57,039 bases of DNA. Origin: Folioceros fuciformis. Lineage: Eukaryota. The stretch spans positions 1 to 57,039 of the forward strand of contig JBNGIO010005929.1 in the NCBI GenBank assembly GCA_049999805.1, in the 5' to 3' direction. Shown in pieces: positions 6,801-50,527 of this stretch. The notes under the pieces were generated by a model. The model saw only the letters and a list, made by a program, of their open reading frames with translations. It searched no databases and had not been told where the DNA came from. Within the stretch, counting starts at the first letter, position 1. Each line of letters starts with the position of its first letter. Position numbers and translations under genes: made by a program.

Positions 6801-7387
6801 ATAGACAGCAGCAACCCCTTCAACCCCAAAACGCAGATCTGCCGGGCATCCAGCGGGTCGCACCGCATACAGCCTAAAACCTCTGGAGCAGCATCGAACT
6901 TCCACAGCGAGCGCCCAGACCCTGGATCCCACAGCACGACGAGCGAAGGGCCATGAATGGCCATCACAAGCCAGGGATGCCCGAACACCCACCGAATGTC
7001 CTGTATCCCGAGCTTGTTCTTCTCCTGGTCGACCCCGAGCCAGGTCACCACTTCCCCCAACCCGACATCCCAAATGGCGATCCTGCCCTGCCTGTCCCCC
7101 GCGGCCACCCTCGTATGCATCGAAACTCCATCGTGCGTCAGATCCCTGGCAATCCCCTCCGGCGTCCACTGCACGGCGGTGACGTAAGCGGCGGGCGCAG
7201 AGGGCGTGCTGCGGGGGGGAGGCATCGGCAGCACCGTCACCAGCTGCATGGAGCGGACATCAATCACCACCACAGAGCTCCCGGCCGCGTACGCCAGCAG
7301 CCCGTGCGAGCTGCAGTGAGCCGCGCCACCGTTCTCCTTGCTCGCCGGCGCGGCCAGCCCTGCCCCGGCGCCTAGGCTGCCAGTCAT
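876..7387 (-). CDS. WDR11: WD40-repeat protein, WDR11 homologue (multi-exon)
   Basis: Successive minus-strand exons with GT/GC-AG borders: GLLAYAAGSSVVVID..AAGDRQGRIAIWD; VRGVRWLGNSRLVSFS; MGDRLGNIRWWDVTTG; LVLELDWLP; ERISWHDKL..KRIHE; AVTLLLATPP..FYVDALRAVALASAVS; LPDTAAMFLLAC. ATG 7387, TAG 876-878. Exon 1 contains an assembly gap. Confidence 0.9.
6611..6710. other. Assembly gap (100 N) inside WDR11 exon 1
   Basis: Run of exactly 100 N. The apparent frame change across it is a placeholder artefact. Confidence 0.99.
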
Positions 7388-8474
7388 CCTTCCAGACCCG
7401 GATTCCGATTCCGCCTACCGCCGTGGCTCATAGAATCGCGCTGATCCTGAGACGCGGACTCGGCGAGCTCGGATTCGCCCTCTCCTCTCGCCTGACGCTC
7501 CGTGCAGACGACATTGAAGGATTCAGGAACAAGAATCTGCGCGCCGGGCAGTTGCGAGAACCCGCAATCCCAAGCGTCTGGCTTGGATCCCGTCTCCTCC
7601 CGATGGCCAAAGCTGGGAAGCCGGAGGTTGCTCGGAAACTGCCGCGAACCTGCCAGCAAGGCCCGCTGTTCATCATCCCCTCACCAGGCTTCCTGGCTCA
7701 CTTCATCCTGCTCCTAGGAGGCTCGAATCCACGGCTTTCCTGAGATCCAGAGAGACAGAGGCCAGCCAGCTCCACCGTTACGCTCGACGCGTACCTTGCC
7801 CTAGGACGCTCCTTGAGGGACCCGGAGTCTCCATGATTGCACGGCTTACCAATTCCATTTTCCCTCTGCCATTTTCTTCCCTCCCGCAAAAATTCCAAGT
7901 GTAGCGCGGAATTGAATTGGTCAAGGCAAGGTGCTTTCCCGACACACGTGTGTCCCAGCCCAGTCCCAGGCCCAGGAGATGGAAAAACAAACGTCCTAGT
8001 CTCCGCCAAAGAAGGGTACAGTACAGTACTGTTTGTAACACCCGACCATACGTTTTAGGATATCTAGGTTACAAAGAAATTACAATACACCACAACAGAC
8101 TGGACATCATCAGGCGGAATAACGTCAAACCACATTGGACAGTTAACACGATTCTCTCCTATCGTTGGCATATGAAGTTTTCTTTCCGACCCATGTTGCG
8201 TACCAACTTCTTACAGGACGGAATCCTCGCACCACCCAGCAGGGTTGACTGCAGTATAGCCACAAATGACCTACCCTGACATCTAGCTTCACCACCATCC
8301 TAATAGTAAGTAAACTACCACAATGCCCATACACAGCTAGACTCCTACACTCGTACACCTCTGCAACGTATAAATTAATTTCGACAAATTCCATACTTCC
8401 AAAGAATGATGAAGAACACGTACACGCCTTCGGGACCTCCAACGGTCCACCTGCCGATCTGAGACACGCCGGCC

Positions 8475-10464
<1,990 letters not shown>

Positions 10465-11143
10465 GGCGGCACCTCCCGTGCGGCAACCGCACGTCATACA
10501 GCCGCAACAGGACTACCAATCCTCCAAAATTCTCCCCCTCCCGTTGCACGCAAATCAGAGCTGCATACACAACCAGCAATCGAGCTGCGCTCCAAGGCCA
10601 GAACACCTTCAAATGAGATCTCCAGGAGCGCCGATCGCTCGCCCTGCCACCCGCCACTGCCCGAGGAAGAGACCTGGCCGGGAATGCAAGATTGTCAAAC
10701 ACAGCACGCCCGAGGCGGCCCCGAAATCACTAAGAGTCACATCGCGCCTGCTTTGCGAAGCGGCAGCGCCGAAGCCCAGAATTCCTTCCCTCGCAAAGCC
10801 CGGAGCAGAGAAGCAAGGCCGTGACCGCGCGAACGAGGCCGCGGCAGTCCAGACAAGCCGTGGGCAATCCGTGAAGACGACAGTAAGGCTGCAAAGGCAC
10901 AAGACATGGAAATTTACCTCTGAAACGAATTTGCCAACAGTCTAAGAAATTTCTCGCCAACTCACGCTCACACATGGCAGAACATTTCAGTCCACTAGTT
11001 CTTTATCAAAAAGACAACACTAAAATACATATATATTTCTTCCTGTGGGTACCACATATAGACGTAACTTCTAAAAAAACAAATTCAGTGAATGCCATCA
11101 GGCTCTCCACGGAGTAAATCACCGACGGTCAAAAACGCACGTG

Positions 11144-14600: not shown

Positions 14601-15821
14601 AAGGCTACCACATGCTTGGAGCACACTCACAATCGTACGATCATCTGGGGCAACACCCTCCTCTAGCATATCTGCATACAGGCGCAAAGCTTTCTCTCCC
14701 TCGCCAAGTCGCGCATATGCTGCGAGCATCGCATTCCATGAAACTACATCTGGTTGCACTACTGTCTCAAACAGCTGCTGCGCATCCAAAAGGTTTCCAC
14801 ACTTTGCATAGGCACTAATGAGAGAATTAGAAACAAACACTTGGGACTGATAACCCCTGTGAACAGATTCAACATGAAGAGCCTTCACCTTTTCTAGAGA
14901 CACCAGCTTGAGGCGTCGACCATTGAGAAGCACGCCTTCCTCCATCTCTGCCATACCAGCACAAGCTTTCACCATGGTGACCAGGGTGCGATCATCTGGA
15001 GAGATACCCTCCTCCTGCATCTTGTGGTAGAGGTGCCAAGCCTTGTCCCCCTCTTGCCGTAGACAATATCCTGCAAGCATTGCATTCCATGAGACCACAC
15101 TCCGCTGTGACATTCTGTCAAACACATGGCGGGCATTTACAATGCTTCCACACTTCACATACATATCGATTAGTGCGGTAGAGACATACAAATCAGTCTC
15201 AAATCTGTATCTCACAGCCTGGGCATGAATCCGAGTGCCTTGTTCCAAGTCTGCCAAGCTGGAGCAAGCTTTGAGCAAGGGGACGAAGGTGTATTTGTCT
15301 GGCTGCATTCCTCCTTCTTGCATCTTCCAGTACAAACTGAGAGCCTCCTGAGCCTGCCCAGATTTGGTGTAGGAAGAAATGAGGGCATTCCAGGAGAAGG
15401 CAGTTCGGTACGACAAACGATTGAACAGCTGGCGGGCATCCTGAAGCCCACCACACATGAGCAGCGCCTTCACACTCGATTCCCCCAAAAATACATCATA
15501 CCCATATCCATTGTCTGCCAGATGGGCATGCACTCGCTTTGCCTCAGCCAATGACTTGTTCCTTACGCAAGCCTGCAAGAGATGCCAGTACAGGTTTCCT
15601 GAAGGCATCTGGTTCTGCTTGTCCATCCACTCCAACGCATCATGCAGCTGGCCTGTGTCGCAGAGCTGTCTCAGCTCAAAGGTCCCGTCCCCTGTAACAT
15701 CATTGTGTCGCCAGCCGCAGGTCACGGCCACTCCGTTCAGCCTTGTAATCTCTGTCTCTCTCCCGGAAGACGCGTAGCTGGCCACGGACTGCCAGCCCGC
15801 CAGGGTGGATAGTCGCAGCAT
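11682..15821 (-). CDS. Very long PLS-class PPR protein with E1-E2-E+ end and no DYW domain (organellar RNA-editing specificity factor)
   Basis: Single long ORF of P-L-S triplets (VVSWNAM..GY; TFV..L.AC; LVSMYAKCG), P2-L2-S2 (TFVSLLSACSHAG; EHYASMLDLLSRAG), E motifs and PG box KRPGQSWIE, then a stop before any HxE/CxxC. First true ATG is 15821 (MLRLSTLAGW..., presequence-like); the track start 15845 is GTG. Confidence 0.93.
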   Translation of the reverse strand: MLRLSTLAGWQSVASYASSGRETEITRLNGVAVTCGWRHNDVTGDGTFELRQLCDTGQLHDALEWMDKQNQMPSGNLYWHLLQACVRNKSLAEAKRVHAHLADNGYGYDVFLGESSVKALLMCGGLQDARQLFNRLSYRTAFSWNALISSYTKSGQAQEALSLYWKMQEGGMQPDKYTFVPLLKACSSLADLEQGTRIHAQAVRYRFETDLYVSTALIDMYVKCGSIVNARHVFDRMSQRSVVSWNAMLAGYCLRQEGDKAWHLYHKMQEEGISPDDRTLVTMVKACAGMAEMEEGVLLNGRRLKLVSLEKVKALHVESVHRGYQSQVFVSNSLISAYAKCGNLLDAQQLFETVVQPDVVSWNAMLAAYARLGEGEKALRLYADMLEEGVAPDDRTIVSVLQACGSLADKEEEVFVNGCATKLFSLQKGKAFHAQAAVWGYTTDVFVGSTLVSMYAKCGAILDAQHVFDELFETDVITWNAMLAGYCHQAQPEKALLLYNQMQEEAVLPDVWTFVGALQACNSLAEKEESLSIDGESIKVTSLQTGMAIHAAAAAAATVGMDANSVVFYSTLIGMYANCGSIHHARHVFDASPRHVTLVWNAMSTGYVQQGQHENALMLFLRMQKEDVKPDPCTFVSILRACSNLAGKEESALVEGRSIRLTSLERGKAIHAEAVVQGYGWDGLVGNTLVSLYTKCGSLTDAELVFNSLSQRDVVSWNAMIAGYAQQSSGEKALECYGQMLKEGTSPNERTIVSVLQACGNMADMDEGTSLDGQPIKVEWLRRVKELHAEAASRGFESDIFVGNTLVSIYAKCGSISQAHQLFDQLSQQNVVSWNALLAGYAHAGQAKEVLELSSVMLDQGLEPNDRTFASVLKAFASLTNLDDGVLIDGRFVKVGSLQKGKTIHSEAAGRAYENDSFVGNSLISLYAKCNSIEDAQFVFDRLLQRNVVSFNVLITGYAQQDQEGIALDLFAQMLDDGFWPDERTFAGVLQACSSLSEREESTKIDGQAFKVESLQRGKAIHAEASRWGNKLDVSVAGRLINAYAKCGSVVDAQHAFDRLPERNVVCWNALIAAYAEQNQDDMVGLLFRQMELEGVSPDEFTFIGILKACSNTGALDMCVQIHRDIAAGGCTSSLALATALIHAYANCGSMLDAHAVFDSMPQHDVVSWNALVTGYAQQGDADMTVACFLQMQKDGLQPDGITFVSLLSACSHAGRVDQGLDYFKLMTKEYNVTPAIEHYASMLDLLSRAGLLSEAASLLSEMPMPPNWSMWLSLLGACCKHGNISLARQAFDSALELQPKEAAPYVLMTNIYAHAGMWESAEEVDELRRLWGTWKRPGQSWIEHEQEVHSFMVRDSRHRHSARIYETVRNLNKELPKV

Positions 15822-15913
15822 GGCATCTGCAACACTACCCTCCACAACCTTGCATGGGATGAGGCAGCTACATTATGTGCCCGTTTCTAAAACTCCTCTA
15901 CCTCATTTGATCT

Positions 15914-18244
15914 ATGTGGTGTGACTGGGCTGGATCCGCTTGTGCATATGTCTCTGCCATGCCAGTGGCCTGTGCAGAGTACACACCATGTCGCACTGTG
16001 GTCAATCTCTGCAGGGAGGGACATCTGGACAAGGCCATGCTGGTCCTACTGCGAATGGACCAACAAGGTTGCGTCCCTTCAGCTGGAATGTTCAAGACGC
16101 TTCTTCAGGCCTGTATGCAACAGAAAGCCCTTGCGCAGGCCAGGCGGGTGCAAGCTCACTTGGCAAGACATGGGCTGGAGACCGATCCATGTCTGGGCCA
16201 GCTTGTGGTGTCCACTTTGGTGAATTGTGGAGGTCTGAACTATGGGCTCCAACTGTTTCGAAGATTGCCTCACCGAACTGTTTTCTCCTGGACGGCCGTG
16301 ATTTCAGGGTATTGCAAAGCAGGAGATGGTCGTCGGGCTCTCTCCTGCTACGAGCAAATGCAACAGGAAGGAGTTCATCCTAACAACTACACGCTTGTTG
16401 CCCTGCTCAAAGCCTGCACCAGCCTGCGAGACCTAAATGAGGGCAAGCGAATGCACGCACATGCTCGGCACCATGGGTTGGAGTCCGACGTGTTTGTTGC
16501 CACAGCGTTGGTGAGTATGTATGCAAAGTGCAGGAGCTTGGAAGATGCACACCACGTCTTTAACCAGCTGTCTGACCGAAATGTAGTGTCATGGAATGCT
16601 ATCCTTGCAGCATATACACAGAATGGCCAAGGGGAACAGGCATTGAACATTTTTTGGAAGATGCAAGAAGAAGGCGGGATTCCAGATGCTCGCACCTGTG
16701 TTGCTGCCCTCCAAGCGTGTGGGATCATGGCGGAACAAGAGGAAAATGCAACTGTTGGTGGCCTTGATATAGTTAAACTGGACTCATTGCACGCGGGGAA
16801 GACAATTCATGCCCAAGCAGCTGGAAGGGGGTTGGCATGCAACATTTTTGTGAGGAATGCCTTGGTAACTATGTATGCAAGATGCGGGAGCATTGAGGAT
16901 GCCCAACGACTGTTCGATCAAACGGCAGACCGCACTGTTGTGTCCTGGAATGCATTGGTTGCAGCATATTCGCAACAGGGACAAGGACAAAAGGCCTTGC
17001 GCATCTACGCCGAGATGCAAGAGAAAGGTGTGGAGGCAGATGACCGAACGTTTGTTAGTGCTCTCCAAGCATGCGGCAGTCTTGCGGAAAGGGAGGAAAG
17101 CACAGAAGTGGATGGGCAACACATCAGAGTGGAGTCTCTGCGAAAGGGCAAGGAATTACATGAGAGAGCTTCTCGTGTTGGCTATGATGTCTTTGTTGGT
17201 AACACATTGGTTAGTATGTACGCGAAGTGTGGGAATATCAAGGATTCAGAATATGTTTTCGACAGAATGTGTCTCCGAGATGTGATGTCCTGGAAAACAA
17301 TGATTGCGGCATATGCTGAGCAGGACCAGGGAGAAAAGGCTTTGCACACCTATGGGCTAATGCAGACGGCATCTGTCCAGCCGAATGAGCCTATCTTTCA
17401 GTCGGTACTGGAAGCCTGTAGTAACATGGGACTCTTAGAGATCTGTCGCCAAACCCACCGCAAAATCATCGAGTGTGGATTAGAAGGCAGACTATCCGTG
17501 GCAAACAGTCTGATACATGCTTTTGGGAAGTGTGGCAGCATGGTAGATGCTCAGTTCGTATTTCACTCATTGGCTTCTCCTGATGTCGTGTCCTGGACTG
17601 CCCTAATCGCTGGGTACGGACGCCAGGGAAATTGTGAGGCGAGTCAGAAATGTTACGAGGATATGCTTCTGGCAGGCGTCAGGCCTAATGAAGTGACATT
17701 TCTGGCTCTTCTGGCTGCATGTGGTCATGCTGGCATGGTGGACAGAGGACTGGAGCTCTTTGTAAGCATGACCAGAGATCATGGCCTTATTGCGGGGCCG
17801 GAGCATTACGTTTCCTTGATCAATCTTCTGTGCCGTGGTGGGTTGTTCACCATAGCCGAGGGTCTGGCTGGTAAGTTGCCGATGCAGCTCGCCTTGCACG
17901 GATGGCTCTGTTTGCTTAGCGCTAGCCAGAGACACGGGAAGGTGAGTGTGGGAAGGCGTGCCTTCGACTGCGCTGTGGCTCTGGAGCCCAAACAAGCTGC
18001 GGCCTATGTCGTCATGTCGAACATCTATGCTCAGGCTGGCATGTGGGAGTGTGCACGTGAGATAGATGGCATGAGGCAAACAGCGAGAGCATGTAAGAAG
18101 CCCGGGCAGAGTTGGATCGAGCACGAAAAGGAGGTGCACACATTTCTGGTGGGGGACCAAAGGCATCAGCAAGGGAAACTGCTGTACGGACTGTTGAACG
18201 AGCTTCGTTTAATTCTGGGGCAGCGGCCAAAGCTTGGTGGATAG
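15914..18244 (+). CDS. PLS-class PPR protein with E1-E2-E+ end and no DYW domain
   Basis: P-L-S triplets, TFLALLAACGHAG, EHYVSLINLLCRGG, PG box KKPGQSWIE, stop at 18242-18244. The true start is uncertain because of an acceptor-like TGTGCAG ending near 15977. Confidence 0.92.
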   Translation: MWCDWAGSACAYVSAMPVACAEYTPCRTVVNLCREGHLDKAMLVLLRMDQQGCVPSAGMFKTLLQACMQQKALAQARRVQAHLARHGLETDPCLGQLVVSTLVNCGGLNYGLQLFRRLPHRTVFSWTAVISGYCKAGDGRRALSCYEQMQQEGVHPNNYTLVALLKACTSLRDLNEGKRMHAHARHHGLESDVFVATALVSMYAKCRSLEDAHHVFNQLSDRNVVSWNAILAAYTQNGQGEQALNIFWKMQEEGGIPDARTCVAALQACGIMAEQEENATVGGLDIVKLDSLHAGKTIHAQAAGRGLACNIFVRNALVTMYARCGSIEDAQRLFDQTADRTVVSWNALVAAYSQQGQGQKALRIYAEMQEKGVEADDRTFVSALQACGSLAEREESTEVDGQHIRVESLRKGKELHERASRVGYDVFVGNTLVSMYAKCGNIKDSEYVFDRMCLRDVMSWKTMIAAYAEQDQGEKALHTYGLMQTASVQPNEPIFQSVLEACSNMGLLEICRQTHRKIIECGLEGRLSVANSLIHAFGKCGSMVDAQFVFHSLASPDVVSWTALIAGYGRQGNCEASQKCYEDMLLAGVRPNEVTFLALLAACGHAGMVDRGLELFVSMTRDHGLIAGPEHYVSLINLLCRGGLFTIAEGLAGKLPMQLALHGWLCLLSASQRHGKVSVGRRAFDCAVALEPKQAAAYVVMSNIYAQAGMWECAREIDGMRQTARACKKPGQSWIEHEKEVHTFLVGDQRHQQGKLLYGLLNELRLILGQRPKLGG

Positions 18245-18304: not shown

Positions 18305-21300
18305 TCAGTGGTGATCACCACACGAGCAAAACCCATTCACAAAATGGTGAACACGGTGGGCATCTCTGACTATTATTTCTCGCCTTTCAATCTTGGACAT
18401 CATCTTAGTGCCAGTGTGGCAGTCATTGCACATTCGCAGATTTTTGGTCACCACCAAAGTGGTACCAGCTGGAGTGTTCAACAGGCCGTAAGCCAATGCT
18501 AGTTTCTCAGCATGTCCACAAAGAGCATCTTCCTTCTCCGTCTGCCCCAACTCCACGTTTGGCATCCGCCCTCCTTCTCCATGTAGAAGTGCATTCACAC
18601 TCCTTAGCTTGGAGGATATGTCATCCCTTTCATCCCCCACAGTAAACGTCTGCACCTTGTTGTCAACCTCGATCCAAGCCCTTGCAGACTTCTTGCAAGC
18701 AGCCCCAGACTTCCTTAGACTTTCGATCGATTCTGCATCCTTGGACCGATCTGCGTTCGTATAAATGTCTTGCATGAGTGCGTATGGAGCACCTTTCTGT
18801 GGCTCCAATGCAATAAGACGGTCGAAACATCGCCGTCCACGCTCCACGTCGCCGTGACTTCTACAGGCACCCAGCAAGGATGTCCAGCTAGCAACAGAAT
18901 CTTTAAGGGGCAACGTCTGCAACATGTGTTCTGCCTCATCTAGATGACCTGCTCGCCCCAGAAGATCAACCATGCAAGTACTATGATACACAGTGGGTGA
19001 AATGCCATGGTCGTCAACCATCATCCTGAAATAGTGCTTGCCTTCATTCACTAGCCCCTGGTGACTACATGCAACAAGAAGAGAGAGAAAAGTCCCATCG
19101 TCTGGTTCAGTACCATGGTCCTGCATTTCTTGAAAGCACTGCAAAGCACGTTGCACATCATTATGCAGGCAATAGCCATTGAGCAGAGCATTCCACGTAA
19201 CCGCAGTTTTTGTAGGCAACTTATCAAGCACTTTGCGGGCGTCCTCCAGATTGCCGCATTTTGCATACATGTCCACAATGCTGCTGCCTACCACCACATC
19301 AGCTTCCTGACATCTTTTCTGAACTTCGTAATGCAGCTCCTTTCCTTGTTGTAAAGCTCCTATGCTGGCACACGCTTTCAGAAGGCACGCTATCGTATGA
19401 TTGTTTGCTGAGGTGATCCCCTCCTGCTGCATGGACGCATAAAGGGCAAGTGCTTCGTGACCAAGCCCCTGCTGAGAACATCCATCAATCATGGCAGTCC
19501 AGGTCACTACATCCTTTGTGGGTAATCTGTCAAATACTCTTTTCGCATCCTCCAAGCTCCCACATTTTGCATACATGTCCACCAAGCTGTTACCCAGAAC
19601 CGACTCCAGTCCTTGTTCCTCTATCTGCAAATGAAGCTGCTTCCCTTGAAGGAGCTCACGTTCACTGGCACATGCTTTGAGGAGGCAGACAAATGTAACC
19701 CGGTCAGCTGCTGTGGTGCTGTCTCCCTGCATGAGTGCATACAGATCGAGGACTTCTTGACCCAGCCCATGCTGAGCATATCCTGCAAGCATGCTATTCC
19801 ATGTGACGACATCCTTGATGGGCAACTTATCGAAGACATCACGAGCATCTTTCAGGCTCCCACATTTACAATACATGTCTATCACACAGCTGCCGACAAT
19901 GTGGTTAGCTTCAAGCCCCCTTTCTTGGATATGCAAATGAAGCTCGTTCCCCTCGTTTAACGTTTGCATGCCAGCACAGGCCTTCAGCACACATACAAAC
20001 GTAATATCATTGGGCAAGGACATGCCTTCCTCCTTCATACTCTTGTAAAGCATAAGCGCTTCTTGACCAAGCCCATGCTGAACATATCCAGTGAGTAGGG
20101 CATTCCACGTTACCACATCTCTTGTTGGCATTCTGTCAAACACCCTTCTAGCATCCACTAAGCTCCCACACTTCGCATACATATCCACCAGGCTATTGCC
20201 CAAAACCAGATCAGCTTCCAGGCCCCGCTTCTCAATCATTGAATGGATCTCCTTGCCCTCATCTAGGGCACCCGTGCTAGCACATGCCTTCAACATGCAC
20301 AAAAATGTTGCATAACTGGCCGTAATACCTTCCTGCTGCATGCGTGCAAAAAGTGTAAGGGCTTGAGTACCAAGCCCCTGTTGTGCATATCCTGCAATCA
20401 TGGCATTCCATGTCACCACATTTTTGTTTGGCAGCTTTTCAAACACTCGGTAGGCATCCTCCATGCTTCCACATTTTGCATACAGGTTCACCAGGCTGGT
20501 GCCAACAAATACACTCGGTTGAAGGCCACTTCCCAAAATATCCGCGTGAACTTGCTTGCCGGATGGTAGATCTGCAACTGTGGCACACGCCTTAAGGACT
20601 GCCACATATGTGTGGCTGTTGGGGTCCACACTTGAGTGTCTCATCTCCTGATACAGTTTGATCGCCTGCATGGGCTGACCATGCTCGGTGTGTGCTGATA
20701 TAATGGAATGCCAAATGCATGAGTTAGCCACAGCCAGCTTTGACAGGACATTGGTTGCTTCCTGCAACCTCCCATGAGAGGTATACATGCGGATAATGTG
20801 GCTGGCCAAAATTATATTGTTCTCATATCCACACTTCAGAGTTAGAGCATGAACGCGTCTGCCAACACTCAAATCCTTCTGTGCAATACAATGCTTGAGG
20901 GTTGAGCAAATGCTAGACTCGGGAACGATTGATCTTTGCTGCACTAGGAGCTCCAAGGCTTCGACAGTCGGAACCAGCTGCTTTTCTCCAGATTCCTTTT
21001 TCCAGATCCCCAGTCTCAGATTCCCTTCCGACCTACAAGATTACGACGCTGTCAAACAAGTGACTGGGGTTCAGACAAGACATGATGCTCAAGCACTAGA
21101 TGCTGACTACTTGTCGCTCGAAACAACACAACTGCGGAAATGTGTCCAGTTAAGGGAAGTCGAACCTCTGAGAGACCTCATGGACTTTCACTCCTCGCTG
21201 CAAATTTTCCTTCATCCATGCATCCTGTGAGTCATACAATGCATCCTCAGTGGTGCTGTACATGAAGTTCCTACACTCGACCTTGGTCTGCAGCGTTGAT

Positions 21301-23195: not shown

Positions 23196-24774
23196 TTTTG
23201 TCCATTAACGTCAGTTGCCATGAACCTCTGTCCATCAGGAAAGCATAAACAACCCTCCGGAAGTAGTTTCTCGTCCTACATGAGTTGGTAGCGAGCCACT
23301 GGTTTTGTAGAACAATGCGCAAAGTAGGTAGCACAGACGCCATTCTAACAATATACAAGAACATTGCATGTATCTCAGTTGGTGCTATTGTTCGATTAGG
23401 CCTGGCCTGCGCGGTGGCTTTCCTGAGATATCCTCTTCTGGGTGACCTTTCTGTTCAAGCTCCAGACAGCTTGTCAAACCGGGCTCTTCTCATACGGACA
23501 CCCTTCACATTTTGTACAGTAGTGTGTGTTGCGGCCTGCAGGTGCTTTATGAGAAGCCATTGAGAATGGCGTAGTAGATTGTTGTCCACATCTGACCTGT
23601 CGTCAAGGAGATCTGACAACTTGAGACATCGAGGTAGGCACCTCGAAAGAAATACTACACGTACGTACCTTTGGTGCTGTGATCACAGGTTCCCAGTAAA
23701 GCCCCTCCGTGTCTGCATCAGCATTATCCCGTCGTCTGTACTGATGCGAAGTGTTACCATGGCTCCACAAGCCTCTGATCCAAGTTAGTTGAGCTGTTCC
23801 AGGTGATGCCGCAGCGAGAAGGATTACCATAGAGAAGGAAATGAATTTGCATCTATCCTGATGCCCCATGCTTACACGGCATGATGCTGGGCTGACAGGC
23901 CCCATCCCCCGCTCCGCGGTTTCGATTTCGTCATGCTCTACAACTGGTGCGCAGAATATGTTTCATGAGGCCTCACCATACGACTTCAGCCTCATCCCTC
24001 ATCTCTCGTGGGAAGAAGAAGCCTGACAGCTCTCACTCATGGACAATACTTGCCAACACTCCAAGCATCGGAATCTCGCCCCGCCTCGCCTCCTGAGGTA
24101 AGCTACACGGAAACTCTGATTGCTGTTCACACTTGCGGACCCAGAAAGGACATGCTCCCTCGTGAAACATGTCCTCGAGGCTGGACGATGCAGACTGCAC
24201 TCCTGTTTCACGATTCACGCTCCGTGTAGAAATTGTCTTGTCTCGATTCGGCCATGCCAGCTAATCTTTGCAAGCGACCCATGAGGATCCCAGTCAAACA
24301 GGAGGTCACCGCAAGTACATGCGCGAAGTTATGAAGCGGCCGTAGATGATCCGAATATGCCTCGCTCCCCGGATGGTTGCACGCAGCACGATCCCCATCA
24401 GCTCAACGCGGTTGGCATTGGCGGAGCGAAAGTGCAGCCTAGCAAGGGCCGGGCCGACTGGCAATGCGCATCAATTAGGGAAGAAAACAGTAAAGCTCTG
24501 GTCGTCCAGTCTAGGTAACAGAAAACAGGCTCGCCACGCCCTGCCATCCCCACGCTCCGCTCCAATCGGACTCGACTCCCGCCTCCCCCGGTTCTTTCTT
24601 GCTCTCCTCTCCCACGCAGTTGCCTGCGCCTTTTGTGGATCTTGTTTATAGCCCGGCCTCCAGCTCTCCGATTGTGAGGAGACGACGCGCTTCCGGAATC
24701 GGATTCGTGAGTTCCCGGAGGCGGGCGCTGGAACACCGATTGCGGATTGATTGAGCTGTGAGCAGGGAGAGACG

Positions 24775-25398
24775 ATGGCAAGCACGACGGCAAACAATGG
24801 CGCTTCCAAGGCGCCAAGGAGGCTCCTGTCGTCCATGTACAGGAGATCGGTGGCAGCGCATCCGTGGCACGATCTGGAATTGGGGCCGGGAGCTCCGGAG
24901 GTGTTCAACACAGTGGTGGAGATCAGCAAGGGGAGCAAGGTGAAGTACGAATTGGACAAGAAGACAGGGCTGATCAAGGTGGATCGCGTGCTCTACTCCT
25001 CGGTGGTGTACCCGCATAACTACGGCTTCATCCCGCGCACGCTCTGCGAGGACAACGATCCCATGGACGTGCTGGTGCTGATGCAGGAGCCCGTGCTTCC
25101 GGGATGCTTCCTGCGCGCCAGAGCCATCGGGCTCATGCCTATGATAGACCAAGGTGAGAAGGATGACAAGATCATTGCAGTCTGTGCAGACGATCCCGAG
25201 TTCCGCGTCTACGAGGACATCAACCAGCTGCCCCCTCACCGCCTGGCGGAGATCCGCCGCTTTTTTGAGGACTACAAGAAGAACGAGAACAAAGAAGTTT
25301 CTGTCGAAAATTTTCTTCCAAAACAAAGTGCCATTGACGCAATCAGACACTCCATGGATTTGTACTCTTCCTACGTGCTGGAGACCCTGAGACAGTAG
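24775..25398 (+). CDS. PPA: Soluble inorganic pyrophosphatase (family I), intronless CDS
   Basis: [48 protein letters not shown] (active-site signature), [27 protein letters not shown] 24775, TAG 25396-25398. Confidence 0.97.
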
Positions 25399-30419: not shown

Positions 30420-30936
30420 GAAGAAGAGGAGAGGAAGAGGGAGAGGGAAGTGGTGAGGAGGAAGGTTTTGTGGTGTGGCGTGGAGTGAAATAGAGTGGAG
30501 TAGAAGGAAACAGAGCAGGAGAACTGTGAGGCTTGCCGTTTGTCTTCTCAGTTTGGAGCGGCCTGGTGTTGTTGTATGCGGTGTGCATCCTTCGGTTGTA
30601 TATGAGACACAGAGCGGGGAGTAATCTGCGCGATTTGAGCGCCGGTAGCGCGTCCACGGAGCGGGGGACGGGAGAGGATGCAGTTGCGCGGCTGGGAGAG
30701 TCGGCAGAGCTGAATTGGAGGCACTGGAGGTTTCGTGGTCGAGCGTAGAGAAGCTGAGGTTGAGCGGGAGGCGGAGCGGAAGCTGAGGCGGTAGCCTCGT
30801 CGCACGGGCTGGGGCCTGGTTTGGGAGGAGGAGGAGCAGGTGGTGGAAGCCTCCGGCTCTGTTGATCCTGGCATCGCGTGTCTTGTTCAGGCGCAAGTCG
30901 GCCTTGCTGATCCGGCACAGGGACAGGTTGGATATA

Positions 30937-32055
30937 ATGGTGTGGACGCTGCGGCTATGGGGAATGGCTTCCGCAATTATAATGTCAGTCATGTTGTTGC
31001 CGTCGATGCAGTCCTGGTCCCCTGCGGAGGCCAGGTCCACACGGTTTGGGGGTGATGACTTCGCATCTTTGCTGCATGATCCGGCTCTAAGATCGCCGGG
31101 GGACATTCCTGTTTTCCGCGAGGCTCCGGCTTTTCGCAACGGCAAGGAGTGTTTTATTCTGGAGCAGTCCAGTGAGGTGGCCGGTGTTTGTGACATCAGT
31201 GCTGTGCATATTGCTATGACGCTTGATGTGGCTTACTTGCGGGGTTCCATGGCTGCCATTCTGTCCATCTTGCAGCACGCAGGGTGTCCGGAAAACTTTG
31301 TCTTCCATTTTTTGGTGTCGGACAGGGATGCAGAGCTGAGAACTGTTGTGCGCTCTACGTTCCCGTTTCTCCGTTTCAAGCTGTATCATTTTGATGAAAA
31401 TCTGGTGAAGTCGCGTATCTCGTCTTCTGTGCGGGAGGCCCTGGAGCAGCCACTCAACTATGCACGCAACTATCTCGCGGACATCCTGGAGCCTTGCGTG
31501 CAGAGAGTGATCTATTTGGACTCGGATTTGGTTGTGGTGGATGACATTGCTAAGCTTTGGGGAACTAGCTTGGGCTCATACGCCATCGGAGCGCCCGAGT
31601 ATTGCCACGCCAACTTCAGCAAGTATTTCACTGCGGCGTTCTGGGCGGACGAGAACCTGGCCAGGGCTTTCAACGGGCGCACCCCTTGCTACTTCAATAC
31701 GGGAGTGATGGTTATTGACTTGGCCAAGTGGCGACGGGAGAGTTATACCAGGTTGATTGAGGTTTGGATGGACATTCAGAAGGAGAAGCGCATCTACGAC
31801 TTGGGGTCACTGCCCCCGTTTTTGCTTGTGTTTGCTGGCAGTGTGGAGCCCATTGAGCACAGGTGGAACCAGCATGGTCTTGGGGGGGACAATCTAGAAG
31901 GCCGCTGCCGTGCGCTACATCCGGGCCCGGTTAGCTTGCTGCATTGGAGCGGGAAGGGAAAGCCTTGGATGCGATTGGACGCTAATAGACCCTGCCCGTT
32001 GGATAGCCTGTGGGCACCCTATGATCTATTATTGACCGCCGTGGCCTACCAGTGA
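30937..32055 (+). CDS. GATL: Galacturonosyltransferase-like protein (GT8 family), intronless
   Basis: Hydrophobic N-terminus; [53 protein letters not shown] (DxD); [49 protein letters not shown]. First ATG 30937 (track start 30862 is TTG). Confidence 0.96.
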
Positions 32056-33476: not shown

Positions 33477-36400
33477 CTACCGGCAATTGCTCCCAATGGG
33501 CCCCACCTTCTGACGTGCTCCAATGTCGGAGAGAGAATGAGAACTGTGGTCATAAAAGAAGCTGCACCTGTAGGTCAGCGAGGCATGTCCTGGACAGGGT
33601 ACGGTGCCACAGGAGGGGTCAGGTTGCTCCATCGTGTGGGTGCTACAGTAGGTCTGATTGCCGGTCTCGAACATCACATTGACTTTTCTCAAAAGACAGC
33701 TGATCTGCATGAGGTACCACGATTTCAAGCCTGTTAGTGAACTCGCACTGAATCAACCATTCGGCCTAGTGGTGAGACGCGGCCTCACCGGCAAATCTCT
33801 GAAGTCGTTTGACCCAAACAGTGCTCCTTTTTGGTAGCAACGGTACTTTGTTTCAGATGGCCAGAAGAACTTCCTGCATCTCATGTGAGTCGGACTACAA
33901 ACAGAACTTAACGAGCCACCATCTCCCGCTCTGATCACCACCGGCGACCACAGAGATTCAATGCGAACCACCTGGGACATTGCTCTTTGGTCTTCAGAGA
34001 GCGACACCTGGAAAGATAAATTTTTAGGAATTTTGGATGTGGCTGGTCGACCCTTGGAGGTTCAACCAGCAGCCCAATCGCAAGGCGACATGACCACAAC
34101 TTGCCACGAAGAAATCGAAATTTCAGTATTCAATCCGAGCTCCCCGGAACTCTAGCCAATCTTTCATACCTCCACAATATCACCGACGTAATACTCCACA
34201 TCATCCAATCTGCAAGCTTCATAGAACAAGTTGTTCTAAAGAGATGCCCGACAAGAGTATGCATCTGGAAAGAAGTCGGCAATCTCCTGTATAGACTGTG
34301 GTACAGTGGCAGGTGACCTAAAACAACTTCCTTTCCCCACACAGTGTGGTCTTTGAGGAGGCTGTGCAGAGACAGCATCAGCAACGATACGTTTTGATCT
34401 TTTCTTCCTCACCACAAGAAAATCAGTAGAGCATGCCACGTCACACAACTGCAGTGGATCACCCCTTGACTCTGGCAAGGGGAGAAGGCTGTGGGAGAGC
34501 AAACTTTGCACTAACCACTCTGCAGGCTGCACAACAAAGCATAGAATAAGCTGTCTAGGGCCCTCTAACATTTTGAGATTGCTTGGACTGAGACACATTT
34601 AGCAAAAACTAGAGTTACAAGGGTTGCAAAAGGGGAGCACAAACCACAATCGGCATGTTGAACTTGAGGGCCAAGGCTCTCTGTCTCTGAGGTAACTCCT
34701 TGAGATCCTCAACAATGAGAACATCCAAAAACATAGGTCCACTTCTGCTTGCCTGCTTCAAGCTCGTCAGAGTCTTCAGCACTCGGCCTCCACCATGCTG
34801 AACCAAGAGTCCATTCAACATTGTCATCTACTGCAGAAACAACAAAACTATGCCTGTTTGACTAGCGGGGTACCTCAAGTAGAGCTGAGAGCCTCAAACG
34901 GAAGGACAATTGGCCATACAAGACAGCCTGCAGGCCGTCAAGAATCGGTTTCCCACATCTGTTCATGAGATTGTTCTTGCTTGGCAGCTTGAATCTGTAC
35001 TCGTATCTGTCAACCGTGTACAATATTTTTCAAAGACTCTAAATGTGCAAGTCCACTTGCACAAGCATTCCGTTGGCCTGGTCCAGCCAAACACAAGGCA
35101 GCACAGTATTGAACACACTTGAAGGTGAGAGGCTTACTCACTGTACGGCAGGCACTGCCCTCTAGCTATTGAGGAAGATATCCAATCAGGCTTTAGAGGC
35201 GGGCAACCTATTGCACAGCCATACAAGAACTTGGGGGTGCGAACCTAAGCCACACACGATAAGACCCTGTTACTTACGCCGAGTGCTGGTAGAAGATGAC
35301 AAGGATAGAGGGAAAAGATGAACCTGCTGTGGGGCAATCACAATTGGTGGTCGGTTTTGAACCCTTGATGTTGACCTCAGCATCTTTACTTGCAAGATAG
35401 ATGGTGGAGGAATCTCTTGTAGGACTGAACCGCCGTGGTCTTCAATTATTTGTTCGACCTCACTCCTTTCCTGAGGCTTGTATCCCGTGAGAAGAAATTG
35501 AAGGCCCCTGAAAAGGTATCTAGATGAAGCTGTTTTGTTGACCATTCTTCTTGAAGAATGGTCAGGGCAAACTCCAGCTGCTCCTCGGCTCTCTTTCGCT
35601 GAGAAATGCTTGTCTAACGTTTCATACAGCCGAGGAGCTTCAGGGCACTTTTTTCGTCTCTGATCTTCTAGTCAGGAAACATGGGAAACTAAGTCAGCTA
35701 CAACTTCACCGCGATAAGCTCTAGTCCATTCCCTGAGATTGATTTCAATTTGTCAATACTCTGCTTTTTTCCATTAAGGAATTGATCACCACGCCATTTC
35801 AACAAAGTCCAGAAATAGATTCATGCATCTGCTAAGATCAAACGTTCCTCAGCGTACTCACATGTTTTGACCTTCACTACCATACAAGGTGGTGTCTGTC
35901 CATGGGCCTGAATAGTTGGGAGATGTGCAGATGCAACGTGATCTGCACCTAACCATCCGGCATTGAAAACTGACTGAGAGTTGTTGTCAGTTGGGGATTT
36001 TGTAGTCTGAGAATCCACAACTCTGCGAGAACGCAGATGAGCTACATTTACGCCCGGCCATAACAAAGGTGGAGAATCTGCACAGTTATCATGCTGCAAC
36101 GAAGAACGACCCTCGACTTCCACTGGGCAGCCCCTGTTGACTGGTTCCCCACTGAGCATGGTTGGACGCCTGCTTTCACCCGATGTCAGCTGTAAAGTAG
36201 AGAGATGGATGTCAACATGATCGGAAGGTGTGCTGTAAGGCCTAAGTGATCGATTTCTCTTCCGCTTAACCCCATTAACGCTACTCTCTTTGTCTTGGCA
36301 CTCTCGTAGGGACTGCATGACCTGGGCAAGAACCATGTCATGAGTTGCCAGCAACATTGGCAGCATCACGAGAGTCCGAACCATACTCATGTTATTGATA

Positions 36401-38030
36401 CATCTGTGAATATGTGCTAGTGGGATTAGCTATTCTGGAAGGCACAGGAGAACGTACCGGATCTTTGGCACACATAGTGGAGCACGACACTGAGCATTGC
36501 GATGGAAATGTCCGGAGGTTCATCTCGGCACTAGAGTCGACCACATTTGGCCTCCTCGTTTCTGGAATCCCTGCCTTCCCTCCAGCCAATCCCTTACAGT
36601 CCGGATCTCGTCCTGAAAATATACCTCGACACACTATGTCACCTGACTCTGTTAGATTGCTGTATTCCAGCTGAACTTTCTTTGGAACTGGTCCTAGGAC
36701 TCTTGGCCTACGGCCTACTTGTCTCAGCTCCTGATAATAGTCAAAACCAGCGGTTTCTCTTGTCAGATGGATGCGTTGCATAGAAAAGCTTCTGCGCAGC
36801 TACACAAAACTGCGTGGCGGAAGGCCTATCGATAACAGTGCACGCCATCGGCCCTTGTACAAATGGGAACACAAGCTCACAAGCGAATTCTCTGACCGAT
36901 TACCTCAAGCAGAGTCTGCTTCCAGGGTGTCGAGGATGCAGCTCCCTTCCCGGACGCCGCCTGTTCATCCCTATGAAGGTTTGGTCCATCAGCAGATAGA
37001 TGCGACGCATGAAAGCGCTCCCGAACCACTATGCGACACTATGACATGCCAGAAGGCATATCGGCAAAGTACAAGCCCTAGTATCGCTCCACGTTCAAAT
37101 GAATTACGAGCTCACAAGCGAATTACGTATCTGGCCGGTTACCTCAAGCAGAATCTTCTTCCGGGATACGGAGGATGCAGTGCCCCTTCCAAAACCATCC
37201 TCTTCATCCATACAAAGGTCTGGTCCATCAGCAGACGTATCGGTAACACTAGTTTTGGTCATCCGGCCACAGTCCTCAGGTGAGGACCGACATAATTCTG
37301 CAGCAGACCTAGAATGGAAGGTCTCAGTCTGACCTCTGGCATCCACAACACCGACAGAGACCTCATGAGGAACAAGAACCGAAGCCCCGACATCACACAG
37401 CTGTTTCCTTTCTTCACCCTCCCCAATATCGCCAGCGATACAGAGTCCAACATCAATAAAAGCTTCATTCGCAACCGATTCATCCAGATCCGCCATAGGA
37501 GTCTTATCCTTCGAGCCAGGTGCATCTTCCAACGTAAACAGATACTCCAGACCAAGACTTCTACGCGCATACTTCATCCGATACGCGGCGTCCACAATTG
37601 CAGATCTTGAAAGCGTATTTCCCATCAGCTCCGCGACCACAACTCCCTCTTCGGCAGCCACCAGATAGTCCACTATAACCTCCTCCTCCAAAACAAGCAG
37701 TTCAGAAGTGGCCCTTGCCCGCTTGTTGCTCATGATTTTACTCCCGGCCCTTACAGCGCCATCGGATATCTCCGCAGCAAGGGCGACCTCATCAGAAGAC
37801 AAAGACCTCTGCCCCTTCTGAAATTTCACCCTCGAGGGGCCGCCACGGAGCCCACTGGGCGGCAAGTACGGTTCTGTAGATGGAGTGTTGACAGAGTCCT
37901 TCATCTTCCCTGCAAGCAAGCAACTTCCATAAGGCACATTGAGACCCGAATTTGGGACCTGCTGCTGTCCGAGACCATTATCGGTCGCCTTCTGCGCACA
38001 AACAGTACGTGCTCCCTGCACCACGCTCAT
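33477..38030 (-). CDS. Multi-exon protein: long low-complexity N-terminus, tandem BRCT (53BP1/Crb2-like) and C-terminal BAH domain
   Basis: BRCT1: LFRGLQFLLTG..IIEDHGGSVL..RTPKFLYGCAIGCPPLKPDWI. BRCT2: ILDGLQAVLYG..LLEHGGGRV..MPIV|PAEWLVQSL. BAH: FYEACRLDDVEYYVGDIVE|V..VVRIESLW..CRKFFWPSET..LFGSNDFRDLP|ISCLLRKVNV..YRCSFFYD. One junction (about 35880-35670) is unresolved, and a further 3' exon near 33250-33089 is possible. Confidence 0.75.
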
Positions 38031-39814: not shown

Positions 39815-39930
39815 CTCAGAAATCCACTCCCATCAAAGGAGGAAGAGTGATAGGGGGGAGAGGGAGGTCGACCTCAGAAATCCACTCCCATCAAAGGAGG
39901 AAGAGTGATAGGGGGGAGAGGGAGGTCGAC
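39815..39930. repeat. Perfect 58-bp direct tandem duplication
   Basis: CTCAGAAATCC...GGGAGGTCGAC at 39815-39872 and again at 39873-39930. Confidence 0.95.
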
Positions 39931-41599: not shown

Positions 41600-42650
41600 A
41601 GTTGCTCTAAACTTTGCTAGCCCAATGTCATGTTTCGGAGTTAGCCCTTCATGACTTCTTCATGACCCCTTTATGTCGTGTTTCGGAGTTAGCCCTCCAT
41701 GACTTCTTCATGACCCCTTTGAATCTAGGCAATGGACCAAATTGAGTCACCTCTGATTTATCGCTGCTACCTCCAACTCCTAAACAAAGCGGACAAGCTT
41801 GGTTAAGGTGATTTTGTAGGCCACAACCCCCGCACCTAATAGGTAGGTTTGGGTAGTCAAAGAGTTGGGTGTAGCATTTGGAGGAATCCTCTGGATCACG
41901 AACAACAGCACCTGCAAGCAAAGATGAGAGGCTATATACTCTCACACCAAATCGTGGTGGTTTGCTTTTGTTGAAGAAATGAGAACCCACCTTGGGCACC
42001 TCCACCACTTGACCAATTGTCTCTAGAATTTTGCGAATCCTTGGGGCAAGTTGGATAGGCACGGCGGAAAGTCCCACCCATAGAAAATGTTGCTTGATTT
42101 TGGATTGCATGATTGTCTTCCTAAGAGACCACGCCTCCACCAACACCAAGATGGAACCTCGGAAGGACAACGTCGTTTGTAAGAGTGCTTGGGCTCCTGC
42201 TGCCTCGTCACATTTAATCTGGAAGGAACCATTGTCTTTCAGGAAGAGATATGCTTGGGGACATCCCGTAACTTGTGCCACCTAGTCCTCTAGCTCCCCC
42301 ATGGTAGGAGGACCTCCGGAAATTAGCCACCCCACCACCGAGCTGACCACAAGCTTGTCTTCCTTCTTCTGAAAGTATCTCTTCTCAGTGAGAACGTTCG
42401 CCAAAGGACCCAACTGTAGACCAGTACCCTCATTCGCTGAACTTGAGGCATATCCTTGACTAGGGTCCACGTTTGGCCTCCCAAGGGCAGAGTCCACCTC
42501 AAGCATCTGTACCTATTACTCCTTCTCCACCTTTGCCTTCTTCCGACTAGGGTCACTAGAACTAGATGTTGTGGCCATTGTGTTAGGCCCCCACACGTTT
42601 TGCTCATCAAAGCACATACTGAGCACCTTAGCCCATGTGCCAACTTTTCA
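41600..42650 (-). mobile_element. Degenerate LINE (non-LTR retrotransposon) ORF1/gag-like fragment
   Basis: LVEAW...LWVGLSAVPIQL..ILETIGQVVEV...FDYPNLPIRCGGCGLQNHLNQACP has the plant LINE ORF1 layout with a CX2CX4HX4C knuckle. In-frame TAG at 42282-42284 and a 48-bp internal duplication at about 41632-41720. Confidence 0.75.
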
Positions 42651-42755
42651 TTCCCCTAGCAGGGGGCTCACAACCTCCATTGTACCTCCAAGCTAGACCA
42701 TCATTCCATATCCAACACACTTACTTCCCGCACCTCCCATGTTCCCCGCCCCAAT

Positions 42756-44337
42756 TCGTATATTCTCATCTTTGTTGATAACTTCGCACGGAAGGTATGG
42801 ACTTACCTCTTGAAGGAGAAATCTTAGGTGTTTATGACCTTAAAGGAGTGGAAGGCTTTGGTCGAGAAGGAATGTGGCGACCAACTTAAGATACTTCGTA
42901 GTAACAACAAAGGCGAATATGTATCTTTTCTTTTCCAGAATTTTTGTAAGGCAAACAGCATTATCCAGCAACTCACAATTCCGCACAATCCTTAACAAAA
43001 TGGAGTGGCAAAGTGCAAAATATGGAGCCTTGTTGAAGCCGCTAAGTGCATGCTCCATCATAGTGCCTTGCCTGTACGTTTTTTGGGCGAAACTATTATG
43101 ACAACTACCTTTGTGTTAAATAGAGTTCCAACAAAGGCAGTACCTGACATGACTCCGGAGGAAGCGTGGTGTGGCATCAAGCCTGACATTAGTCATTTAC
43201 GGATATTTGGTTTTACAACTTATGCTCATGTTCCGAAGGCCAACCAAACCTAGTGGGATTTGACAGACATAAAATGCCTTATGCTTGGTTACTCAAATGA
43301 AGGTAAATGGTTTCGATTATATAATCTTACCACAAAGAAGATCATTTTCAATTGGGATGTTGTATTTCATGAGGTTGTCGACCCTACCAAAGGAGTAGGA
43401 GGTCTATCTACGACTCCACTCTTTCCTTAGCAGACTTCTCCTCTGTATGGTCCTAACCCTATTGAGGATTCTATGCCTAGTATCAACCCGATGCCACCCA
43501 CTTCAATACATGTCATATCTTCTCAACTTTGTGACATAGAGGGGGGAAACTCTTGATGTCCCTGCAGTTGGAGAATTAGATGAAGCTCTTGGAAGCATTG
43601 TAGCTGAAGACATCACAGCATTCTAGAGACATTGCCTATCTTACATAGATCAACGAGAGAAAGCAAACCTTCACAAAAGCTCTTAGACCTCATCAATGGC
43701 TGTGTGCAGGAGAAGTTGGAATATTTTGCAGATGCTACAAAACCATGAAGCTTGAAGAAAGCCTTCGAAGGTCCAAGGCAAAGGAATGGAAAGAGGCTAT
43801 GGACAATGAATACCACTCACTTATCAAAAATAAAACTTGGACAATCACTCTTCTACCCCCTAGAAGGAAAATCTTAGGGTCCAAGTGGACATTCAAGTTC
43901 AAGCGAAAGGCCAAGAGTAGCATAGAGGGCTACACAAGGACGAAACACATTGAAGTTAAGCATCACTTCATTAGGAAGAAAGATCTATTTAAAGAAATAG
44001 AATTAGCTTATTGCCCTTGCTGATATTCTTACCAAAGGTTTAGCCTTAGAAAAAGCATATAAAGTTTAACAAGATAATAGGTTTAACTGAGTAAGTCTTA
44101 TAGGTTAGCTTGTAGATGTGTTGAGTGAGAGTGTTACAAAACCCATCAGCTTGTGCAACGCATCTAAACTAGAATATGTAGAGTATATCCCAAGATATGT
44201 AGGATAATACCTGGGTTGAGGGATTCCTTATCCTCATGGGGGTATTGTTATGCTTACAGGCTATAGATGTAGGTGTGGGCTATCAATTTGAACGTAATCA
44301 ACCAGGGATAGATTTTGGGACTCATTGTTTTCTAACA
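42756..44337 (+). mobile_element. Truncated, internally deleted Ty1/copia LTR retrotransposon
   Basis: Integrase (LIFVDNFARKVWTYLLKEKS*, LKILRSNNKGEY, QNGVA, TPEEAWCGIKPDISHLRIFG), RT start (WKEAMDNEYHSLIKNKTW..LPPRRKILGSKWTFK) and RNase H end (RTKHIEVKHHFIR..DILTKGL), in copia INT-RT-RH order. Contains stops and frameshifts. Confidence 0.92.
44132..44337 (+). repeat. Putative 3' LTR of the copia remnant
   Basis: Purine tract TTGAGTGAGAG immediately before TGTTA (44132); matching inverted end TAACA at 44333-44337. Confidence 0.65.
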
Positions 44338-49512: not shown

Positions 49513-50075
49513 TATAAAACCGGGTGAACCTCCAACATAGGGTTCTTCTGTACTTAAGGCCCAAGCGCGTTTGTCTCTGTCTTTCTCGAGTTGGAGTCCC
49601 TGCGAGAGCCACCGGCGATAGGTTTTGGCGCTTGGGTCTTCGATTGCCTCAGGCCGGTCGTAGTGAATCTGGAGTAGCCATGGTGCACGTTGCTTTTTAC
49701 CGGAATTATGGGAAGACGTTCAAGAAGCCGCGGAGGCCGTTCGAGAAGGAGCGGCTGGATGCGGAGCTGAAGCTGGTCGGCGAGTATGGCCTGCGCAATA
49801 AGCGTGAGCTGTGGCGTGTTCAGTACGCCCTGAACCGTATCAGGAACAATGCCCGCATGCTGCTAACATTGGATGAGAAGAGCACGCGCCGCATCTTCGA
49901 AGGAGAGGCTTTACTCCGGCGCATGAACAGGTAGATCTCTGATGGATGGGATCAGGAGAACTGCGATGGATAGGGATCAGCAGACCTCTGATGGATTGTA
50001 TCTAACTGAAGAAACACTTCCCTGCAACTCCGCACCCTAACGGATGCTCATGCTGGGTCCGGGCGATTAGGGTTT
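49513..50075 (+). promoter_or_regulatory. Candidate RPS9 cis-elements: TATA, site-II-like motif, intronic telo-box
   Basis: TATAAAA at 49513-49519, GGCCCA at 49558-49563, TAGGGTTT (reverse complement AAACCCTA) at 50068-50075. These motifs are typical of plant ribosomal-protein genes but are short. Confidence 0.4.
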
Positions 50076-50527
50076 TATTTTGTTATGGACCGCGGTTCAG
50101 GAATACTGGCTGGGTCTTTTGTCGTCTGTTTGTGTGTTGTTTTGGAGCTGAGCACATTTTCCAATTTTTTTCCTTCTGCAGGTATGGCTTGCTGGATGAG
50201 AGCCAGAACAAGCTCGATTACGTGTTGGCCCTGACGGTAGAGAACTTTCTGGAGCGACGGCTGCAGACCTTGGTGTTCAAGTCTGGTATGGCCAAGTCAA
50301 TCCATCATGCCCGTGTGTTGATCAAGCAGAGGCACATCAGAGTCGGCAAGCAGATTGTGGATGTGGCCTCGTTCCTTGTCCGCGTGGATTCTCAAAAGCA
50401 CATCGATTTTGCTCTGTCAAGTCCGCTGGGTGGTGGGCGACCTGGGCGAGTGAGGAGGAAGAACATCAAGGCTGCCTCCAAGAAGGCCGCCGGTGGCGCC
50501 GGAGACGAGGAGGAAGATGATGAGTAG
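49680..50527 (+). CDS. RPS9: 40S ribosomal protein S9 (uS4)
   Basis: Exons 49680-49930 and 50182-50527: [43 protein letters not shown]...[25 protein letters not shown]...acidic tail. Confidence 0.98.

Follow-up and report, generated by a model that had tools for sequence, protein, structure and literature searches.

An in-frame TAG lies between the tandem BRCT domains and degenerate BAH exons of a land-plant gene in Folioceros fuciformis

We showed that a minus-strand gene in the window (the whole stretch of DNA analysed here, 57,039 nucleotides of Folioceros fuciformis contig JBNGIO010005929.1) belongs, by its sequence, to a family of orthologous tandem-BRCT proteins conserved in land plants (the Ginkgo Gb_23942 family), and that its BRCT and BAH-like exons belong to one gene. 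The two parts are separated by an in-frame TAG, and the gene rather probably makes a BAH-less protein of 900 residues. An earlier note on this DNA had proposed a candidate 53BP1-like adaptor able to read two chromatin marks, with a BAH domain in the place of Tudor. The combination of tandem BRCT and BAH is indeed found in Ginkgo and in a locus recovered from metagenomes (L001), but the window copy keeps the TAG and has lost the methyl-lysine cage.

The gene comprises 11 exons, from an ATG at 38030 to a stop at 33477, as defined by the joints of RNA contigs and, for one junction, by comparison with L001. Its introns span 76-197 nt. Codon 901 (TAG, 34238-34236) is the sole internal stop; the full frame read through it has 1071 residues and the product up to it 900. 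The features of the gene, all on the minus strand, are as follows.

37143..38030, minus strand: exon 1 (RNA contig piece 37142-38223; open reading frame)
about 37682-37443, minus strand: conserved N-terminal motif of the family, in exon 1 (matches Ginkgo, E 7e-11)
36960-36904, 36730-36458 and 36321-35862, minus strand: exons 2-4 (GT-AG joints in RNA contig)
35664-35324, 35244-35138, 35006-34874, 34797-34645 and the start of 34526-34170, minus strand: BRCT exons
34479..35518, minus strand: tandem BRCT, residues 609-820
35488, 35241 and 35232, minus strand: putative pocket residues Thr619 (from the BRCT beta-1 motif), Arg675 and Lys678 (by alignment)
34170..34526, minus strand: 357-nt exon with the end of BRCT2, the linker, the in-frame TAG and the first BAH strands
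34236..34238, minus strand: premature TAG, codon 901; the next exon junction follows after 66 nt
33789..34007, minus strand: degenerate BAH core exon, 219 nt
33477..33704, minus strand: last BAH exon, up to the ancestral stop (aligns to the Ginkgo and L001 C-termini)

Exons 2-4 (35862..36960) form a middle region with poor conservation, and no Tudor or other significant Pfam domain was detected in those of its ORFs that were scanned. Positions 36891-36996 and 37130-37235 form a 106-nt direct repeat (77% identical), as if exon 2 (57 nt) and the first part of the intron behind it had arisen by tandem duplication of the exon 1 end together with the adjoining intron start.

The RNA evidence comes from contigs of one run of one study (X1), possibly prepared from the same clone as the genome; contigs of this kind lose rare variants. 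The run contains 67% of the words of the region and provides two contigs on the gene; two other runs, X2 and X3, provided none. It is not recorded as RNA, and we treated it as a transcriptome because of nine GT-AG joints on the minus strand. Contig 2, on the BRCT side, has eight of these GT-AG joints and passes the TAG with nothing skipped; over 34526-34168 it is a single piece with no gaps and no other letters. Removal of the intron 33788-33705 is likewise seen in a contig (joint 33704/33789).

The BRCT exons are on one contig, the BAH core and the last exon on another. None of the contigs listed bridges the junction 34170/34007, whose position was deduced from the contig ends and from L001. 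The BAH exons might thus represent a separate gene or transcript. This is highly improbable, since the first BAH strands sit on the BRCT contig and the orthologues are single genes. Moreover, the contig ends, 34168 and 34009, both reach exactly two shared letters into the intron 34169-34008, a pattern which would fit a fork between spliced and unspliced forms. A ten-fold gap in depth between the two contigs was dropped as evidence, contig 1 continuing into a convergent glycosyltransferase gene.

In the model of the earlier note, the TAG would be removed with a 69-nt intron (34304-34236), and the resulting protein could recognise both gamma-H2A.X and a methyl-lysine mark. This intron is absent from the RNA contig. 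Its donor, correctly described in that note as weak, agrees with the consensus at 4 of 9 positions (5-8 for ten other donors of the gene), and the L001 counterpart of window exon 34526-34170 (8696-9106, 411 nt) is open and uninterrupted. A transcript that keeps the TAG, named in the same note as the outcome which would count against its model, is precisely what the contig of this single RNA run represents. The BAH-less form had been foreseen as a by-product of intron retention; such a form does exist, but as the one observed in RNA and not as a side isoform.

The sequence ahead of the TAG resembles coding DNA of the family. The orthologues carry a sense codon opposite the TAG, and the peptide encoded by 34346-34239 is similar to the orthologue linker in the frame of the gene (p 0.002, 1000 shuffles), the other two frames giving p values of 0.67 and 0.83; for the 69-nt stretch by itself the value is 0.04. 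On the simplest reading, the TAG would have arisen inside an ancestral coding exon (34526-34170).

Alternatively, the TAG might mark the end of an optional, lineage-specific intron, excised from a minority of transcripts to give a tandem BRCT-BAH isoform, in which the BAH would have a structural or protein-binding role without methyl-lysine reading. The best in-frame donor for such an intron is at 34412, not at 34304: it is in phase 0, agrees with the consensus at 6 of 9 positions and would define an intron of 177 nt, within the size range of the gene. Further points in favour are the strong pyrimidine tract ahead of the TAG (15 of 20 positions, as against 8-14 in ten real acceptors; 9 of 226 exonic AGs attain this value), the open frame, and the retention of 35 of the 61 conserved BAH positions. 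However, the donor at 34412 is also unused in the contig, which has no such joint and no break within the exon. There is no intron at the L001 counterpart, and the part that would be skipped is homologous to the coding linker. We therefore consider splicing of this kind unlikely.

The full protein of 1071 residues could also be produced by ribosomal read-through of the TAG, or if some transcripts had CAG in its place as a result of editing. The TAG lies exactly in the BAH frame, opposite the sense codon of the orthologues, and the window encodes a PPR-DYW protein (see below), all of which would suit this explanation. It is nevertheless very unlikely, considering that the RNA contig contains no changed letter, that the RNA structure around the stop is in no way unusual (z -0.01), and that U-to-C editing is described for organelles in the portions of the literature available to us. 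The bases following the TAG are AAC AAC, which is not a known leaky context. With a junction 66 nt behind the stop, nonsense-mediated decay would be expected; the TAG form is nevertheless the one that was assembled.

Past the TAG the frame remains open for 170 codons, a length reached in 3 of 5000 nucleotide shuffles. In a simulation of neutral decay, for which the indel rate was assumed, the share of runs in which neither a stop nor a frameshift appeared was 58% with 0.01 changes per site, 7% with 0.05 and 1% with 0.08. It is therefore unlikely that the BAH exons are an old relic: either the TAG arose recently, or some BAH continues to be produced in small amounts.

The three BAH-like exons (34235-34170, 34007-33789 and 33704-33477, of 66, 219 and 228 nt) have the coordinates, phase (0) and motifs reported in the earlier note ([sequence]...VVRIESLW...CRKFFWPSET...[sequence]...YRCSFFYD), with AG/GT ends. 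Joined by coordinates, they match a profile built from two orthologues (Ginkgo and L001) with 84.8 bits (E 6e-26), the best of 200 shuffles reaching 3.6 bits, which corroborates the proposed BAH homology. Exon 34007-33789 alone gives a weak match to the Pfam BAH model (E 0.046, under the curated cut-off). ETV6 fusion constructs, which the window BAH exon matched in the PDB, were rejected as linker artefacts, and a single-sequence fold of the Ginkgo C-terminus (pLDDT 32) was unusable for cage geometry.

The BAH protein SHL binds H3K27me3 via Tyr41, Trp63, Tyr65, His88 and Asp90, none of which can be mutated without abolishing binding, as stated in the available part of PMC6013494; the general mode is set out in the corresponding part of PMC13068663. 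The five positions were mapped by alignments (the first Tyr through that with BAHCC1). In the window they are occupied by Gln (33974), Lys (33872), Phe (33866), Asp (33806) and Arg (33800), in L001 by Y/W/Y/H/D and in Ginkgo by Y/W/Y/C/H, i.e. 0, 5 and 3 of the 5 residues are kept, respectively. The Tyr-Trp-Tyr cage is consequently missing from the window BAH and present in both L001 and Ginkgo. The His/Asp pair for H3 S28/P30 is replaced by Asp and Arg in the window and kept in L001; Ginkgo has Cys and His there and lacks the pair in register. Being changed at all five positions, the window BAH would not read methyl-lysine even if it were made.

These substitutions bear on the dual reader that would result from the 69-nt intron. 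The occurrence of tandem BRCT plus BAH in orthologues and the retained BRCT pocket residues are in its favour, but with cage Tyr and Trp changed to Gln and Lys, His and Asp changed to Asp and Arg, any one such mutation being sufficient to abolish binding in SHL, and with the intron itself missing from the RNA contig, it is extremely unlikely that the organism makes a reader of this kind. Of the BAH readers named in the earlier note, ORC1 (H4K20me2) is not among the nearest solved relatives of the intact BAH, which are EBS and BAHCC1 (H3K27me3). The best PDB matches of the L001 BAH exon are EBS (E 5e-5) and BAHCC1 (E 2e-4), followed by TNRC18 and SHL. Unique changes in the BAH number 26 in the window and 11 in L001 (p 0.02), and those in the tandem BRCT 26 and 18 (p 0.29); the contrast in rate between the two domains does not reach significance (Fisher p 0.36 and 0.22).

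The tandem BRCT itself is well supported, in agreement with the earlier note. One window ORF matches the Pfam BRCT model (E 9e-6), and the window protein, with X at the stop, forms an unbroken alignment with the tandem BRCT, linker and BAH of Ginkgo (29% over 504 columns, E 3e-58). The phosphopeptide pocket of 53BP1 comprises Thr1737, Lys1773, Arg1811 and Lys1814; from the BRCT beta-1 motif we take Thr619 to be the pocket threonine of the window protein. The best PDB sequence match of the Ginkgo orthologue is 53BP1 (E 2.7e-4), and its R-T-T-K motif (R-T-x-K pattern) aligns to R1811-T-R-K1814 of that protein. In 53BP1 it is Arg1811 and Lys1814 that bind gamma-H2AX, at its carboxyl end and phosphate (PMC4688034, available part). 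The equivalents of both residues are kept in the window, L001 and Ginkgo; among the other readable homologue rows the pocket Arg is found in 2 of 30 (3 of 33 rows were unreadable).

A structural model was obtained for P0026, a homologue of the window protein (pLDDT 79). VIA-align placed 53BP1 at the top of its matches (Z 17.7, rmsd 2.6, 182 aligned residues), followed by BRCA1 (Z 16.5) and MDC1 (Z 16.2); by Foldseek, BRCA1 and BARD1 were just ahead of 53BP1. The profile of 33 family sequences gave a weak match to MDC1 (E 0.03), and the ESM Atlas gave generic BRCT clusters only (under 0.9), with no usable match. The modelled tandem BRCT would thus appear closest to 53BP1, by a small margin, and the family protein may work like 53BP1.

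When the first BRCT exon served as the query of an index-free search, 42 matches were obtained. A Pfam scan covered 29 of them, the other 13 being fragments of 94-172 aa. Three of the scanned matches were unrelated RCC1 or LRR proteins. Word-indexed searches with single window exons found no homologue among 56 and 51 candidates. A BAH was detected in one of the 29, P0004, which is Ginkgo Gb_23942 (Pfam BAH E 1e-12), and this is also the only one of the 33 aligned homologues with a Pfam BAH match. None was present in the named angiosperm orthologues scanned, in agreement with the earlier note. In Cryptomeria (LOC131031267) the linker and the first BAH strands are followed by the end of the protein; according to the protein models, 6 of the 9 listed isoforms reach this point and none extends beyond it.

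A scan of metagenomes with the BAH alignment produced 156 pattern matches and one confirmed locus, L001. In its homology-based model, the six introns over the tandem BRCT and BAH correspond to those of the window gene and share their phases, and three exons are of identical length in the two (107/107, 153/153 and 219/219 nt). The intron following exon 7817-7988 of this model needs a GC donor at 7989. Apart from the gene itself, no match between the window and L001 was found in a comparison of synteny. A tandem BRCT tree with a midpoint root was built from 19 rows, namely the window, L001 and 17 seed plants with names (unnamed fragments left out). It splits the window and L001 from the seed plants (100/98) and follows plant relationships, both of the former branches being long; by this placement the window probably comes from a non-seed land plant. 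The N-terminal motif, the tandem BRCT and shared intron positions together place the window gene in the Gb_23942 family.

The distribution of the BAH is read from two intact examples and from named orthologues that were all retrieved from seed plants, with none from moss, liverwort, fern, lycophyte or Arabidopsis. Because a BAH occurs on both sides of the seed-plant split in these two intact examples, a tandem BRCT-BAH ending of the EBS/SHL/BAHCC1 type is probably ancestral in land plants.

A different C-terminal feature was noted in 26 of 32 homologue rows (without Ginkgo and Cryptomeria; e.g. P0010, P0034 and P0075), which end in S-x-E-I/T, in 14 cases exactly in SQEI; these rows are related and not independent. 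The tail is not present in Ginkgo, L001 or the window. It fits the definition of an SQEF-like H2A.X tail in the available part of PMC11014961, and may act as a self-ligand for the tandem BRCT.

Human 53BP1 and fission yeast Crb2 share with the family a long, poorly conserved N-terminal part followed by a tandem BRCT (the fold being supported by Pfam and by the model of the P0026 homologue), as well as a methyl-lysine reader module, which is found in the intact orthologues. In contrast to these proteins, the reader of the family is a BAH located after the BRCTs, and Pfam detected no Tudor domain in any of the 33 homologues or in the N-terminal ORFs of the window. The family also lacks the S/T-Q-rich N-terminal region typical of 53BP1, Crb2 and Rad9: there are 4 S/T-Q sites in the 1071 residues of the window protein and 8-12 in four seed-plant orthologues. 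Because of the missing Tudor and S/T-Q features, we do not class the family as 53BP1.

Arabidopsis BCP1-BCP4 (BCP3 being XIP, At4g03130 according to the available part of PMC9792525) are likewise plant tandem-BRCT proteins, and act in the DNA-damage response. In BCP1 the tandem BRCT is joined by a PHD finger, a chromatin module at the C-terminus (PMC11014961, available part). Unlike BCP1 and BCP2, the family has one tandem BRCT pair, and no PHD or acetyltransferase domain was matched by Pfam in any of the 33 homologues. The SQSQ and DWD motifs of BCP3 and BCP4, the counterparts of MDC1, are described in the same part of PMC11014961; an exact-word search found neither in five family sequences, and DTQ in one of the five. 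The family is thus set apart from BCP1-BCP4 by these descriptions of domains and motifs. With regard to EBS, SHL and BAHCC1, the L001 BAH has the same Tyr-Trp-Tyr and His-Asp residues, but the former proteins join their BAH to PHD or silencing regions, not to BRCT. The uncharacterised proteins Ginkgo Gb_23942, Cryptomeria LOC131031267, Amborella LOC18427133 and Nelumbo LOC104607858 share the N-terminal motif and the tandem BRCT with the window gene; the BAH is full in Ginkgo, partial in Cryptomeria and absent from the named angiosperms.

Returning to the BAH-less protein of the window, which we favour, its end would lie 80 residues after BRCT2, much as in the BAH-less angiosperm orthologues. 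Its tandem BRCT may bind a phosphoserine C-terminal peptide, e.g. that of gamma-H2A.X, through Thr619, Arg675 and Lys678, and the protein might serve as a scaffold at damage sites. The BAH would have lost methyl-lysine reading first, while it was still translated. The TAG would have cut it off more recently, leaving the BAH exons in what is now the 3' untranslated region.

A broader scenario, which we put forward tentatively and regard as possible though doubtful, is based on the full reader kept in L001 and the cage kept in Ginkgo. In early land plants, a 53BP1-like adaptor would have read gamma-H2A.X with its tandem BRCT and H3K27me3 with a BAH of the EBS/SHL type, linking break signalling to Polycomb chromatin. 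The BAH would then have been lost at least three times, through a stop ahead of it in the window, a stop within it in Cryptomeria, and deletion in the angiosperms, whose protein has instead an H2A.X-like SQEI tail, possibly its own phospho-ligand. If this is true, readers of a damage mark and of a Polycomb mark would be combined in a way that is new. The Gb_23942 family is a concrete candidate for the 53BP1 role in plants. For intact orthologues it predicts that the L001-type BAH binds H3K27me3 and the tandem BRCT a phosphorylated SQEF tail. The window copy, a record of one BAH loss, is the wrong copy in which to look for dual reading.

Arabidopsis has 21 BRCT proteins, none with the domain order of 53BP1, according to the available part of PMC11014961; the word "BAH" does not occur in the main text of that paper as available, and its orthogroup source data may contain the family. 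For moss, one unnamed, induced gene with a C-terminal BRCT is mentioned in the accessible part of PMC4990234. A phrase match for BRCT-BAH in PMC2993927 proved, from the portion available, to be unrelated. Among the titles and the beginnings of abstracts searched we found no description of a BRCT-BAH fusion or of a plant 53BP1 of this family. The tandem BRCT-BAH architecture is therefore apparently an undescribed variant of tandem BRCT chromatin adaptors.

The surroundings of the gene provided several further observations. An intronless glycosyltransferase family 8 gene (30787-32055, plus strand, Pfam E 8e-54) is convergent with the BRCT gene. The RNA contig that holds the BAH exons continues through 33476-32300 and further towards the glycosyltransferase gene, which suggests that the 3' ends of the two genes overlap. 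Upstream of the BRCT gene, the segment 38470-39930 contains degenerate repeats of about 330 nt and about 40 nt as well as, at 39815-39930, a tandem duplication of 58 nt without mismatch; these are probably remnants of repeats or transposons. Fragments resembling retrotransposon proteins (zinc knuckle, integrase and reverse transcriptase pieces) were recognised by eye at 41649-44023.

Three long intronless PPR-like ORFs adjoin one another at 11682-15872 (minus strand), 15911-18244 (plus strand) and 18305-21040 (minus strand). The last of these contains PPR, E and DYW domains in a Pfam scan and terminates in DHH, not DYW; such an ending presumably resembles the DYW variants of plants that edit U to C. 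The window also encodes WDR11 (6272-7414, minus strand, Pfam E 5e-74) and, as identified by eye, an S6-kinase-like gene (9721-10512, minus strand), a soluble pyrophosphatase (24751-25398, plus strand) and an exon of ribosomal protein S9 (50006-50527, plus strand).
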